A stretch of 33,167 nt of DNA. Origin: an uncultured Clostridia bacterium (lineage in GTDB: Bacteria; Bacillota; Clostridia; TANB77; CAG-508). Under the pieces are notes generated by a model. The model saw nothing but the letters and a program-made list of their open reading frames with translations. It did not search any database and was not told the origin of the DNA. The stretch is from contig CALXHD010000002.1 of assembly GCA_944388015.1 (NCBI GenBank), positions 1-33,167 of the forward strand. The letters run 5' to 3'. Positions 9,787 through 17,254 of the stretch are shown here, piece after piece (position 1 is the stretch's first letter; the number at the start of each line of letters is the position of its first letter). The position numbers and the translations under genes are program-made.

Positions 9787-9815
9787 TTGCCTATTTTAAG
9801 TTGGTATGTTATATT
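9787..9815 (+). promoter_or_regulatory. Putative promoter of the T7SS-like operon
   Basis: TTGCCT (9787-9792), 17-nt spacer, TGtTATATT extended -10 (9807-9815). It lies about 60 nt upstream of the ATG at 9878. Confidence 0.4.
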
Positions 9816-9877
9816 TTAGATGTAATACTTTTTATTAAGTTTTATGCTTAATAATAATATATGGGGAGGTGAATAAT

Positions 9878-10492
9878 ATGGCAAGAATTCCTAAGGCACA
9901 ATATGAAACAATGCCATCATATGCAAAGCAAATGAGATCAGCAGGACAAGAATTAAACCAAGCACTTATAGAAGCATATACAAATATAGCTAATATGCAT
10001 TCAGTTTGGTATGGAAAAAGATATAATTCTTTGTTACAACAATTTAATAATATGATACCACAAATGTCAGAACTATTAGAATTTGTTGTTGCACAACTTC
10101 CATTTGCATTAGAAACAATTGCAAATAACTATTCTTCAGCAGATGGTGTTGGAAAAATAACAAGTGCTGCAAGAACAGAACCTAAAAAAATTAATGCTAT
10201 AACACCAAGTACAGAAGAAGGCTTAAAATTTATGTCTGATGAAGTTGCAAATGTACAAAAGAAGGTATCAGCAAATTTCACAAATGCAAAAGAAAAAATG
10301 GATCAAATTCAAACAATTTATTCAAAAGTTGAATGGGTAAGTGATGCAGCTACTCAATTTAGAGCTAGATTTATGCAATTAAAGAAAAACATAACTACAT
10401 TTTTTGATGAATTTAATGCATCATTTACAAAATCTATGCAACAAACATTGCAAGATATTCAAGCAACAGAAAATGCAAATACAGTTAATTAA
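9878..10492 (+). CDS. WXG100-family-like protein, double length (two tandem WXG-type helical hairpins)
   Basis: GGGGAGG RBS 9 nt before the ATG at 9878, so I prefer this over the GTG at 9869. The first half has W-Y-G at codons 44-46 (10007-10015) in the usual WXG100 position, followed by an ...ANNYSSAD segment. The second half has EWVSDAATQFRARF with its W at codon 153 (10334-10336), about 43 residues into that half. An EssC gene lies in the same operon. Confidence 0.65.
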   Translation: MARIPKAQYETMPSYAKQMRSAGQELNQALIEAYTNIANMHSVWYGKRYNSLLQQFNNMIPQMSELLEFVVAQLPFALETIANNYSSADGVGKITSAARTEPKKINAITPSTEEGLKFMSDEVANVQKKVSANFTNAKEKMDQIQTIYSKVEWVSDAATQFRARFMQLKKNITTFFDEFNASFTKSMQQTLQDIQATENANTVN

Positions 10493-10572
10493 AAGTATAA
10501 ATACTTTCTTTGGTAACTGTATATTCAGTTATCAAGGAAAATATTTATAAAAATATATTTAGGGGGGTTTTT

Positions 10573-15300: not shown

Positions 15301-16979
15301 TTTCTAATATAGGAGCACCTATAAAAGAAGTAGCAGATCCATCGCAAAAAGTAATAAGTAGTAAGGGTGAACAATTAACAAATATTGTTAAATATATATA
15401 TCACTTAGCAAAGCAAGAACAAATTCAAACACATAATTTATGGTTAGATAGTATACCTGAGACTATATTTGTAGAAGATTTAAAGAAAAAATATCATGTT
15501 AAAGATTTAAAAGATGGGATAAATGTTATACTTGGTGAATATGATGACCCATATAATCAAAGACAAGGTCTAGTTAATTTAAATCTTTTAAATGTGGGAA
15601 ATATAGTTGTATATGGAAATGCAGAAAGTGGAAAAGAAACATTATTGGGAACAATAATTTACAATCTAATTACATCATATGATGCAACAAAAGTTATTAT
15701 ATATGCACTTGACTTTGGAAGTGAGGCATTAAAAATATATAGAAATGCACCACAAGTTGGAGATGTGGTTTTAGCAAATGAAAATGAAAAAATTTCTAGA
15801 TTTTTTGATATGATACAAAAGGAAATAAAAGATAGAAAAGAAACTTTGTCAAATTATAATGGAGATTATGAATTATTTGTAAAAACAGGCAATAAGCCAA
15901 TGCCGATGATGGTAGTTATTTTAAATAATTATGAAGCATTTTCAGAAATTACTCAAGAGGAATATGAAGACATACTTTTAACAATTACAAGAGAAGGTGC
16001 TAAATGTGGGATAATATTTATTACTACAGTTAGTGTTTATAATGCGATGAGATATAGATTAACACAAAATTTTAAAAAGAAAATAGTATTACAATTAAAT
16101 AATGAAGATGATTATTTTAATATATTTGATAAAATAGGAAAGAAAAGACCATCACATATTTTTGGAAGAGGATTGATAACTATAGATAGTGATGAAATTT
16201 ATGAATTCCAAACTGCTAAAATATGTGAACAAGCAGAATATAATGCATATGTGCAGGAAATTATTAATACATTGGATACTACAGAGCAACCATCTGCACC
16301 AAGTATTCCAATTATTCCTGATAAAATAACACTGAAAGATTTTGAACCAAATTTAAAAGATATACAAACATTACCAATTGGCTTAACAAAAAAACAACTA
16401 AAAATAGCTACATATGATTTTACAAAAAGACTTATGAATATTATTGTATCTAAAAATTTAAATGATGTTGTAGAATTTTTATATTATGTTATTGAAGAAA
16501 TAAAAAAATTACAAAATTTGAATATAGTTATATTAAATGCAGAAATACCATCTGTAGGACAAAAAGAAAAAACAAAAATAGAATATCAAAATTTTGTGAA
16601 AAACTTTGAAAAAAATAAACAAAATACGTTATGTATAATAATAGGAATTGATAAATTTATAAATGAATTTGTAGAAGATACAGAATTTAATGAAGTTTTA
16701 AAAACAGCTGAAGAAATAGGGTTATATAATTTTATAATAGTAGAAACTGTAAATAAATTAAAAAACCATGAATATGATAATTGGTATAAATCATATGTAT
16801 CAAATGATTTTGGAATATATGTTGGAAACGGAATTGATGATCAATATCTTATTAGTATAGATGATAGGCAAGATTTGGTAAATAATTGTGGAAGAAGCTA
16901 TGGATATATTGTAAGACAGGGTATTCCAACACTTATAAAATTGTTAGGTATGAGAGAAAGTAGTGATGATAATGGATAA
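12390..16979 (+). CDS. essC: Type VII secretion system ATPase EssC/YukB (FHA domains, 2 TM helices, three FtsK/SpoIIIE-type domains)
   Basis: GGGAGGGAG RBS before the TTG at 12390. The N terminus has an FHA-like module (GTFVNNMPIFGETKILFNGDVIFIMGLKV). Two TM helices are present (PAILVLGSTLAMGLMMMISIITTI and AFSLAMAVAMLISIIVFPIL). D1 has Walker A GSTGSGKSE (14580-14603) and Walker B LLIICDEFAELK. Two further FtsK-like domains follow. The 1529-aa length is typical of EssC. Confidence 0.9.
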   Translation: MLVTLIGKKSIHKIVLPQTTVGNYWITDKTEEKEKKLVNIEGKAGKWQVVSNNYVKVINSKFINVTNNSISVIPSREKVTERVILQEYSMYGICIGNLEELYILYCSPVYENSFEHLNIKNTKEIYIGSNNQNHIEYNNILVKNTHARIYKDSGRWVIENLDNRFGTFVNNMPIFGETKILFNGDVIFIMGLKVIMMGNSIFINNPQNAVRYNSKYFELDKTKYVIDKTQSSEDIQENIELYSDKEYFSRAPRIKNIIETEKVKIDAPPQIQDKEDTPAILVLGSTLAMGLMMMISIITTIDGRISGTATAKDTAFSLAMAVAMLISIIVFPILNVKYDKRRKKRYEEKRQKRYTEYLNKKRKVIEKIMSKQKAILFENYVSAEECTKIILEKGPRLWERKIEDYDFLQVRLGIGDVPLKIEIQYPEESFAMEDDNLVDILNDIAEKSKTLKDAPIVTSLIEKDVVALVVKNNETFKKFMQSLIVQLIAFHSYEDLKLVFLLKKDNDNYWDYVKMLPHVWNNTKQIRFYADNYEDMKEVSKYLEDEMKERMQYDENMDYRAFSPYYLIITDDYTKIENLRIITEMLKSKKNLGFSLLCITEDMTQLPNECKTFITLENNTGVIFDSEMSSNNQRKITFDTSFTIFFEKICQTISNIPIRYMRTGSGLLPNTYTFLEMYDVGLIEQLNVLERWRKNDSTLSLKAPIGIDSSGMPIVLDIHEKMHGPHGLIAGSTGSGKSEFIITYILSLAINYQPDDVTFLLIDYKGGGLAGAFSKGQIKLPHLVGTITNIDTIGLQRSLASIQSELKRRQIKFNEARNMIDEGTIDIYKYQKLYHEGIIKEPIPHLLIICDEFAELKQQQEEFMDELISVSRIGRSLGVHLILATQKPAGIVNDQIRSNSKFAICLKVQDREDSMDVIKKPDAASLRGAGQFYMQVGNDDYFVLGQSAWSGAPYYPSDMAKRKIDNSIQFISNIGAPIKEVADPSQKVISSKGEQLTNIVKYIYHLAKQEQIQTHNLWLDSIPETIFVEDLKKKYHVKDLKDGINVILGEYDDPYNQRQGLVNLNLLNVGNIVVYGNAESGKETLLGTIIYNLITSYDATKVIIYALDFGSEALKIYRNAPQVGDVVLANENEKISRFFDMIQKEIKDRKETLSNYNGDYELFVKTGNKPMPMMVVILNNYEAFSEITQEEYEDILLTITREGAKCGIIFITTVSVYNAMRYRLTQNFKKKIVLQLNNEDDYFNIFDKIGKKRPSHIFGRGLITIDSDEIYEFQTAKICEQAEYNAYVQEIINTLDTTEQPSAPSIPIIPDKITLKDFEPNLKDIQTLPIGLTKKQLKIATYDFTKRLMNIIVSKNLNDVVEFLYYVIEEIKKLQNLNIVILNAEIPSVGQKEKTKIEYQNFVKNFEKNKQNTLCIIIGIDKFINEFVEDTEFNEVLKTAEEIGLYNFIIVETVNKLKNHEYDNWYKSYVSNDFGIYVGNGIDDQYLISIDDRQDLVNNCGRSYGYIVRQGIPTLIKLLGMRESSDDNG

Positions 16980-17223
16980 AGTTTTAGTAAAATTGTATGT
17001 TCCTATTATAGAAGAACAATATGATGTATGGCTACCATTAAATCAAAAGGTTTATAATATAATTAATCTACTTATGAAAGCTATATATGAGATTACAGGA
17101 GGATATTATAAACCTAGTAAAATACCAATTTTATATGATAAATTAACTGGTATGCCATATGATATAAATTTGAGCATAAAAAACTGTAACATGAGAAATG
17201 GAGCAGAAATAATATTAATATAG
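16966..17223 (+). CDS. esaB: YukD/EsaB-like ubiquitin-fold T7SS protein
   Basis: An 80-86 aa ORF overlapping the essC stop, which suggests translational coupling. Candidate starts are GTG 16963, ATG 16966 and ATG 16972. VLVKLYVPIIEEQYDVWLP...NGAEIILI has the beta-grasp pattern and size of YukD/EsaB, and it sits immediately beside essC. Confidence 0.7.
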   Translation: MIMDKVLVKLYVPIIEEQYDVWLPLNQKVYNIINLLMKAIYEITGGYYKPSKIPILYDKLTGMPYDINLSIKNCNMRNGAEIILI

Positions 17224-17254
17224 AAATTAGGAGGCTTTTCTCCTAATTTTTTTG
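17224..17254 (+). terminator. Rho-independent terminator ending the T7SS-like operon
   Basis: AAATTAGGAG (17224-17233), gctttt loop, CTCCTAATTT (17240-17249), then a T-run. The stem is a perfect 10 bp. Confidence 0.85.

Follow-up and report, generated by a model that had tools for sequence, protein, structure and literature searches.

The operon described here lies within a 33,167-nt stretch of DNA from an uncultured Clostridia bacterium (contig CALXHD010000002.1; the whole stretch, ~26% G+C, is referred to as the window) and encodes a type VII secretion system (T7SS) with very few parts. Across the lineage, the locus consists of a WXG100 protein, the ATPase EssC and a small ubiquitin-fold protein of the YukD/EsaB type, with a variable slot for toxins between the first two. 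No gene for EssB, EsaA or EssA was found in its vicinity. This reduced layout is a stable, lineage-wide property and not an oddity of one genome. Our judgement leans, if only slightly, towards the five genes of the window being a working T7SS operon of lineage-specific, reduced architecture that operates by the mechanism proposed below.

In the ORF listing, five co-directional open reading frames (ORFs) span 9869-17223 of the + strand. Start codons were set from ribosome-binding sites and alignment to relatives. The features of the operon are as follows.

9785..9830, + strand: probable operon promoter (TTGCCT, 17-nt spacer, TG-n-TATATT at 9787-9815)
9878..10492, + strand: P1, a 204-aa tandem WXG100 protein (TsxA/EsxA-like), from a Pfam WXG100 match
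10496..10549, + strand: hairpin in the P1-P2 spacer, 23-bp stem (dG -23.9, z -7.0)
10573..10998, + strand: P2, a 141-aa helical-hairpin protein, from alignment to small slot proteins of relatives
11051..12328, + strand: P3, a 425-aa all-helical protein whose N-terminus aligns with the toxin N-termini of relatives
12390..16979, + strand: EssC/TsxC, 1529 aa, with TIGR03928, FHA and FtsK_SpoIIIE matches
16972..17223, + strand: P5, an 83-aa YukD/EsaB-type ubiquitin-fold protein (TsxB), from an AlphaFold2 (AF2) model and Foldseek
17216..17257, + strand: intrinsic terminator of the operon (dG -16.3 kcal/mol, z -6.15, then U7)

How widely is this layout shared? A scan of one genome per GTDB species yielded 19 further loci, all in gut metagenome-assembled genomes (MAGs) labelled Clostridia or Clostridium, with an EssC 50-68% identical to the query. 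Four additional distinct metagenomic loci are the sister locus L021 (EssC 87% identical, the same five-gene layout, rpoB next) and L026, L027 and L028, which were chosen from a protein database and for which Pfam annotation is precomputed. L024 and L025 belong to the window's own species and were used for flank extension only. This species is also found on contigs of 198 and 221 kb from other samples, and the window diverges by ~1% from contig CALXJY010000001.1 (uncultured Clostridia bacterium BRZ_GI__bin52). When ORFs were clustered over the 19 loci, EssC was present in 19/19, and an 83-89-aa family that includes P5 lay directly 3' of EssC, again in 19/19. The ~204-aa family of P1 was present in 17/19, the other two being truncated contigs. 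The same trio (WXG-204, EssC and YukD-like, or A-C-B after TsxA, TsxC and TsxB) also occurs in L021, L026, L027 and L028. The clustering gave no conserved family outside the trio and the slot, and no conserved transmembrane (TM) protein family besides EssC at these loci. Families common to three or four loci are ABC transporter parts, ClpB/C, SMC, HTH regulators and an SH3-NlpC/P60 hydrolase. The most divergent locus, L015 (EssC 50%), has the WXG100, EssC and YukD-like genes only, at 805-6366 between desulfoferrodoxin and the S10 operon, and no slot. Flanking genes are housekeeping genes that differ from locus to locus, with L026-L028 adding three further contexts. With housekeeping neighbours that change from one species to the next, the trio appears to be mobile and to persist as a unit complete in itself.

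The usual partners of a T7SSb EssC were sought over the same material. EssB/YukC, EsaA/YueB and EssA/YueC gave no match in the sizeable ORFs of the window or in ~20 kb of extra flank (~10 kb on each side of it), and none of the three lies within ±10 kb of EssC at the 19 species-level loci or the 4 other metagenomic loci. Likewise, no match to YukC, EssA, EsaA, DUF6382 or DUF5050 was found in the conserved flank clusters scanned or in the precomputed Pfam tables. Kinase- and phosphatase-type matches are of the housekeeping kind only: L026 has a PP2C and Pkinase-PASTA pair ~9 kb from its EssC, and SpoIIE is encoded a short way upstream of the window, neither being a conserved neighbour of the T7SS locus.

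Against TIGR03928, the T7SSb EssC equivalog (cutoff 778.4), EssC reaches 980.8 bits (E 1e-294), and it matches Pfam FHA (2.3e-10; FHA2, aa 126-187) and FtsK_SpoIIIE (5e-43); FHA1, also in the N-terminal region, is degenerate. Two TM helices lie at ~aa 277-297 and 311-331. Of the three ATPase domains, D1 has an intact Walker A motif (GSTGSGKS at aa 731), D2 reads GNAESGKE at aa 1076, and D3 is degenerate. A Kyte-Doolittle scan of the five operon products found TM-length hydrophobic segments in EssC alone. The nearest PDB match is B. subtilis YukB (9qks, 1e-126). The phosphothreonine-binding residues of the FHA domains (GR, SxxH, NG) are not conserved across 16 orthologues. Relatives of EssC form at least 120 clusters (90% identity) at 59% or higher identity to the query, all of them metagenomic. 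An earlier note on this DNA had described a five-gene operon in this place, closed by a terminator at 17224-17254, with an EssC that carries FHA, two TM helices and FtsK ATPase domains and is the only product with TM helices, and nothing in the window resembling EssB, EsaA or EssA. The ORFs, family matches, hydrophobicity scan, profile scans and a strong hairpin followed by a U-run bear out each of these points.

Two further products complete the trio. First, P1 had been called WXG-like. The family assignment holds, with 36.6 bits against Pfam WXG100 (PF06013; gathering score 27.3, E 5.7e-9) and matches to TIGR03930 and NF035934 below their own cutoffs; P1 is, however, more than that, being a tandem double-hairpin WXG100 protein. 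In the family alignment, W44-x-G46 is invariant, the second hairpin has an invariant W153, and the C-terminal tail TExANTV is conserved. When the C-terminal halves of the family were scanned in isolation, WXG100 matched in 13/17 (best 9.4e-5), LXG in 7/17 and EspA_EspE in 6/17. It is from these scans that P1 is read as a single-chain double WXG100, since hhalign of its N-half against its C-half is weak (E 0.003, probability 10%). Second, P5 had been called a YukD/EsaB ubiquitin-fold protein, and this stands at the level of fold, with no family match at the level of sequence. Searches against Pfam, NCBIfam and a PDB-sequence profile gave no match, including none to Pfam YukD, and none of its 29 homologues in the database has a Pfam annotation. 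The AF2 model, built from 27 homologues, has a pLDDT (predicted local distance difference test) of 95.6. A Foldseek search against PDB returned EccD5 and EccD1, through their ubiquitin-like domains (TMq 0.79), and YukD (2bps; TMq 0.75, TMt 0.77, rmsd 2.3). The identity of P5 is thus resolved by structure prediction alone. Its start overlaps the end of essC, and its C-terminus (...EIILI) has no Gly-Gly.

The remaining two genes, for P2 and P3, occupy the slot between P1 and EssC. In most relatives, the slot is variable and 4-5 kb long, compared with 1.9 kb in the window. It begins with a helical protein of 110-220 aa (family C4), which is followed by one or more large proteins of 400-1212 aa (family C3), a small non-conserved ORF and a ~100-aa DUF4176 protein (3.5e-28). 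The C3 proteins share a ~95-aa N-terminal hairpin and a conserved middle region, and their C-termini have fully diverged, with individual members matching NLPC_P60 (1e-17), ADPrib_exo_Tox (7e-9), TNT (3e-6) and YkuD. A common N-terminus joined to diverged C-termini with toxin domains is the signature of polymorphic toxins. The statement in the earlier note that no LXG toxin/immunity pair accompanies the locus therefore fails for the family, where the slot holds a Lap-like protein, a polymorphic toxin, a small variable gene and DUF4176. This content matches published LXG/Lap/DUF4176 biology, in which DUF4176 proteins are chaperones that bind the middle domain of LXG toxins (PMC12478183).

The middle region of the C3 proteins (L002-L019; for example, L007 5722-9360) comprises ~500 aa with two hydrophobic segments ~100 aa apart and invariant motifs such as KSDG.VTN..SG.GY and GGW.S.LT, and no Pfam family matched it. 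Its role may lie in membrane translocation or in binding the DUF4176 chaperone. The region was also considered as a membrane part of the secretion machine. This is unlikely, because it comes and goes together with DUF4176, a pattern published for the middle domains of toxins (PMC12478183), and because it is missing from the window, L001, L024, L025, L021, L005, L010 and L015, where EssC is intact.

What, then, are P2 and P3? The earlier note had listed them as soluble helical proteins of apparently uncharacterised families. Both align to slot proteins of relatives, P2 to the partner and P3 to the N-terminus of the toxin. At 16 other loci, the gene ahead of the large toxin gene encodes a small protein to which P2 aligns, and a Y-[ST]-[SG] turn is conserved among them. 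The top Pfam family for these C4 proteins is YwqH-like PF16888, which matches 5/18 members (best E 1.2e-7). P2 itself scores 22.1 bits against it (E 1.9e-4), under the gathering score of 33.7, and no more than 5 relatives, all weak, came from an exhaustive HMMER search with P2. In B. subtilis, the YwqH gene stands upstream of that of the LXG toxin YwqJ. P2 is probably a Lap/YwqH-like targeting partner for P3, judging by these alignments. Residues 1-95 of P3 form the toxin-type N-terminal hairpin of this clade, with its PxxF turn and AEaRN end, and this hairpin is all that P3 shares with C3. The rest of P3 is predicted, with low confidence, to be helical, with long helices (106-240), a G/S-rich linker (241-287) and a C-terminal part of ~140 aa without assigned function. 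P3 has no match in Pfam or NCBIfam, and no toxin domain was recognised in it. LXG (PF04740) matched neither P3 nor its full-length C3 relatives; when the N-terminal 120 aa were scanned alone, 2/17 members matched LXG at E ~0.013. A profile-profile comparison of the P3 hairpin with the second hairpin of P1 is weak (E 4e-4, probability 35%) and includes an [AT]-E-x-[AK]-N motif. The P3 N-terminal profile was also run against PDB sequences, and this attempt was discarded as coiled-coil noise, with EsxB at E ~0.13. For the 141-aa and 425-aa proteins, the profile searches that the earlier note had proposed hence gave a sub-threshold PF16888 match in one case and no family in the other.

Close homologues of P3 form 7 clusters only, and P3 is the fastest-evolving gene of the operon. 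Seven variants, P0150-P0156, look mosaic; P0154, for example, has the N-terminal variants of P0155 and the C-terminal ones of the window, which suggests recombination between alleles. P3 is accompanied in the window by neither the small downstream gene nor an immunity gene, and it has no middle domain or toxin domain. The absence of both the middle domain and DUF4176 fits the published relation between chaperone and client. From its hairpin and its position, P3 is probably a T7SS substrate, and P2 and P3 together are probably reduced, lineage-specific occupants of the effector slot, that is, a substrate and its partner rather than parts of the machine.

All five genes are under purifying selection, and several of the signals around them are conserved. 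Compared with L021, dN/dS is 0.12 for P1, 0.12 for P2, 0.32 for P3, 0.09 for EssC and 0.08 for P5, and purifying selection of this strength indicates that each gene is kept. No shuffled sequence folded as stably as the terminator hairpin. The promoter proposed earlier at 9787-9815 is less clear-cut. As a consensus match it carries no weight, because sites of this type occur at chance level in such AT-rich DNA (67 observed, 63.6 expected). It nevertheless lies in a block of ~45 nt that is nearly invariant in the window, L024 and L021, though the rest of the L021 spacer has diverged. The hairpin between P1 and P2 is terminator-like and identical in sequence in L021 despite a differing flanking spacer. 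By ending part of the transcription or by stabilising the P1 transcript, it may raise the level of this transcript relative to the rest of the operon. No hidden small ORFs were found in the operon spacers. An exact 19-nt direct repeat, TTATTATGGGACTTAAAGT, occurs at 11046-11064 and 12952-12970, and is translated as MGLKV in both places, the start of P3 and the FHA domain of EssC (IFIMGLKVIMM). Its chance probability is a few percent by rough estimate, so it may be a coincidence.

How might so small a system work? EssC, presumably a hexamer whose subunits each have two TM helices, would serve as the motor and the sole dedicated membrane component. P5 would bind and order the N-terminal FHA/DUF region of EssC, by analogy with YukD and YukB. 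P1 would be a constitutively co-secreted substrate and an activator, equivalent to the EsxA dimer, and its conserved tail motif presumably has a role in this. The N-terminal hairpin of P3 would pair with the Lap-like P2 to form a WXG100-like bundle that EssC recognises, and the C-terminal part of P3 would be exported. Because the slot of relatives holds polymorphic antibacterial toxins and a DUF4176 chaperone, the general role of the system is likely to be contact-dependent competition in the gut.

The strongest version of this reading is that the system is fully minimal. The EssC oligomer would be the entire channel, the YukD-fold protein the sole assembly factor and the double WXG100 protein a replacement for the Esx dimer, with no accessory anywhere in the genome. 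We regard this version as possible, though on balance doubtful. If it is true, no natural T7SS would be smaller, and T7SSa-j would have to be extended by a new subtype.

There are three main alternatives to a working, reduced T7SS. The one that survives best, although we hold it to be rather unlikely, is a distinct subtype that needs extra parts, which would be non-homologous to EssB, EsaA and EssA, encoded at a distance, or recruited from housekeeping functions such as a PrkC/Stp pair and cell-wall hydrolases. Every variant from T7SSc to T7SSj has accessories of its own, often kinases, phosphatases and FHA proteins (PMC11217815). The retention of FHA domains in EssC suggests that they have a partner, and the housekeeping PP2C and Pkinase-PASTA pair of L026 could be a candidate of this kind. 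However, the phosphothreonine pocket of these domains is degenerate, and no accessory is co-localised in ~25 loci, whereas the accessories of T7SSc-j cluster with tsxC (PMC11217815).

The second alternative, which we rate as less probable again, is an ordinary T7SSb that has been split, with EssB, EsaA and EssA encoded elsewhere in the chromosome and assembling with this EssC. In T7SSb of characterised Bacillota, the core genes are clustered, which speaks against such a split. So do the lack of a partner gene within ±10 kb in the 19 and 4 loci or in the window with its extended flanks, and the change of context from species to species, as if the trio were a self-contained mobile unit. On the other hand, EssC scores above the cutoff of the T7SSb equivalog, YukB is nearest to it among solved structures, phosphothreonine-binding residues are missing from its FHA domains as from those of T7SSb (PMC11217815), and the view obtained here covers a fraction of the genome. 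The third alternative, a decaying remnant in the window's species that has lost toxin, immunity gene and DUF4176 and secretes nothing useful, would account for a slot of 1.9 kb instead of 4-5 kb without DUF4176, hydrophobic middle domain or toxin domain, but is very improbable given five intact ORFs in both the window and the 87%-identical sister locus, dN/dS of 0.08-0.32, a conserved promoter block, internal hairpin and terminator, an intact D1 Walker A, and the retention of the trio in L015 without any cargo module.

Several points weigh against a working system of reduced architecture. First, the search for partners covered ~53 kb of this genome and ±10 kb around the other loci. Second, all of the genomes are MAGs, and everything was read from sequence. 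Third, the likeness of EssC to the known subtypes is one of hidden Markov model (HMM) and PDB similarity. Fourth, the AF2 model of P3, all-alpha, has a pLDDT of only 41 and is unreliable, and P2 and the N-terminus of P3 resemble Lap and LXG families only below curated thresholds. Fifth, in T7SSb, YukD stabilises the FHA domains of EssC, which dock on EssB (bioRxiv 10.1101/2025.01.24.634720). Since EssC here keeps FHA domains without phosphothreonine-binding residues, and domains of that kind dock onto EssB in T7SSb, their presence hints at an unseen partner.

What would such a system mean for the field? The identity of the T7SS channel and of its indispensable parts is still debated. T7SSa and T7SSb share only EssC/EccC, WXG100 proteins and a ubiquitin-like module, and each of the eight variants published in 2024 has other accessories in addition. 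A widespread lineage with just these three shared parts, represented by the EssC clusters of gut metagenomes mentioned above, would be a ready-made minimal system. With it, one could ask whether EssC alone translocates folded helical substrates, whether a fused WXG100 pseudo-dimer suffices for activation, and which function YukD has where EssB is missing. The loci also show that uncultured, low-GC gut Clostridia have diverse T7SS polymorphic toxins, including peptidoglycan hydrolases, ADP-ribosyltransferases and TNT NADases, and that the toxins of relatives rely for targeting on a short domain missed by current LXG models. Should the partners prove to be encoded at another place in the genome, the locus would be of no more than modest interest, as a split or variant T7SS.

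The genomic setting of the operon is of separate interest. Upstream lie genes for a WG-repeat protein, a 407-aa protein, ACPS, TatD, a G5 protein, exonuclease III and an AI-2E transporter; the G5 protein has a weak, sub-threshold match to a cell-wall hydrolase. Downstream are rpoB, rpoC, GdpP, L9, DnaB, TilS, FtsH and a DnaJ-domain protein. The ±10-kb extension adds SpoIIE and large surface proteins upstream, and S21, M16 peptidases, an SNF2 helicase and GidA downstream. The earlier note had seen the locus as inserted directly upstream of rpoBC, and a comparison of the junction overturns this. In L018, the T7SS locus lies between tatD and gdpP-rplI-dnaB, with no rpoBC there. Because tatD and gdpP-rplI-dnaB bracket the locus in both the window and L018, the differing element is rpoBC, which appears to have been relocated in the window's species. 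An island beside rpoBC was therefore rejected: apart from the shared synteny, GC content is flat across the operon borders and equal to that of the flanks, and no tRNA, Rfam family or flanking direct repeats were found at the locus. The rpoB-rpoC genes (17581-24951) have no rplJL ahead of them and have a perfect promoter of their own at 17313-17342 (TTGACA-18(TG)-TATAAT). The rpoB leader is ~240 nt long, and RpoB ends in a very acidic C-terminal tail of ~70 aa.

Other features of the flanks bear on the history of the region. The AI-2E gene ends in two hairpins, 9588-9632 and 9631-9675. The second is a perfect 21-bp inverted repeat (dG -23.7) within a segment of ~60 nt that the window and L024 have and the L021 spacer does not; the segment looks like a small palindromic element inserted 3' of the AI-2E terminator. 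Between the window and the near-identical L001 (~1% differing), 152/259 mismatches fall in the AI-2E gene and the spacer between the YukD-like gene and rpoB. These clusters, at ~8500-9500 and 17000-17500, coincide with the two borders of the operon and point to tracts of local recombination. Further downstream, dnaB is split into overlapping ORFs at 28097-28999 (N-terminal and partial C domain) and 28926-29441 (the rest of the C domain). The same split occurs in the independent assemblies L022 and L023, which excludes an error of one single assembly; a frameshift, real or programmed, or a pseudogene could explain it. Approximately 5 kb upstream of the operon, at 2328-5098, are a 508-aa WG-repeat protein (WG_beta_rep, 2328-3854) and the 407-aa protein, which has a C-terminal hydrophobic segment and gave no family match. 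Both genes are kept in the sister locus and absent from other T7SS loci, and hence are probably unrelated to secretion.

How does the locus compare with known type VII systems? Garrett, Higginson & Palmer (2024) defined T7SSc-j from RefSeq genomes (PMC11217815). All of these have TsxA (WXG100) and TsxC, nearly all have TsxB (YukD-like), and each adds subtype accessories that cluster with tsxC. The accessories include kinases, PPM phosphatases, DUF6382-FHA proteins, the AAA+ ATPase TsfV, TsdI-like envelope proteins, EspG-like chaperones and a DUF5050 propeller (PMC11217815). An A/B/C-only core is absent from the published subtypes T7SSa-T7SSj, and the reduced layout is new among them; the literature search found no paper describing an A/B/C-only system in Clostridia MAGs.

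Two subtypes, T7SSf and T7SSj, occur in Clostridia, each with several accessories (PMC11217815). They resemble the system described here in host group, in having TsxA, TsxB and TsxC with FHA on TsxC, and in LXG-like substrates with small helical partners (PMC11217815). In contrast, T7SSf has TsfF (a PPM phosphatase), TsfJ (DUF6382 and FHA, two TM helices) and TsfV (AAA+), none of which was found in the operon or the conserved neighbourhood, and T7SSj has the kinase TsjD together with TsjI, TsjF, TsjJ and TsjK, none of which was found at these loci. The same applies to the membrane Ser/Thr kinase TsxD and the large Ig-like envelope protein TsxI of T7SSj, T7SSd and T7SSe. The phosphothreonine residues of FHA are well conserved in TsjC, partly conserved in TsfC and degenerate here. 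T7SSg, from Acetivibrio and Paenibacillus, is the simplest published variant and likewise has a small core of WXG100, ubiquitin-like protein and ATPase. TsgC, however, has no FHA domain, whereas FHA is present here. Furthermore, T7SSg has two separate WXG100 genes, the DUF5050 beta-propeller TsgL and adjoining Tad pilus genes, whereas the loci described here have WXG hairpins fused in one chain and no TsgL or Tad genes. The WG_beta_rep protein of the window is from another family than the DUF5050 propeller.

The closest likeness in components is to T7SSb, with an EssC that has FHA, two TM helices and FtsK domains and exceeds the TIGR03928 cutoff, FHA domains that similarly lack phosphothreonine-binding residues, a WXG100 substrate and a free-standing YukD/EsaB protein. 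The differences are that EssB/YukC, EsaA/YueB and EssA/YueC were not found in or near ~25 loci, that a 204-aa tandem fusion takes the place of the ~100-aa WXG100 subunit of a homodimer, that the gene order is esx, cargo, essC, esaB, and that the toxins have a short (~95 aa) N-terminal hairpin with no Pfam LXG match. The cargo of relatives again follows the T7SSb pattern of a Lap-like partner, a polymorphic toxin and a DUF4176 chaperone. Indeed, although P3 differs from the toxins of the T7SSb Ltc modules (LXG toxin/Lap/DUF4176) in having no middle domain, toxin domain, immunity gene or DUF4176, the slot order of relatives is like that of these modules, and P2 and P3 occupy the first two positions.

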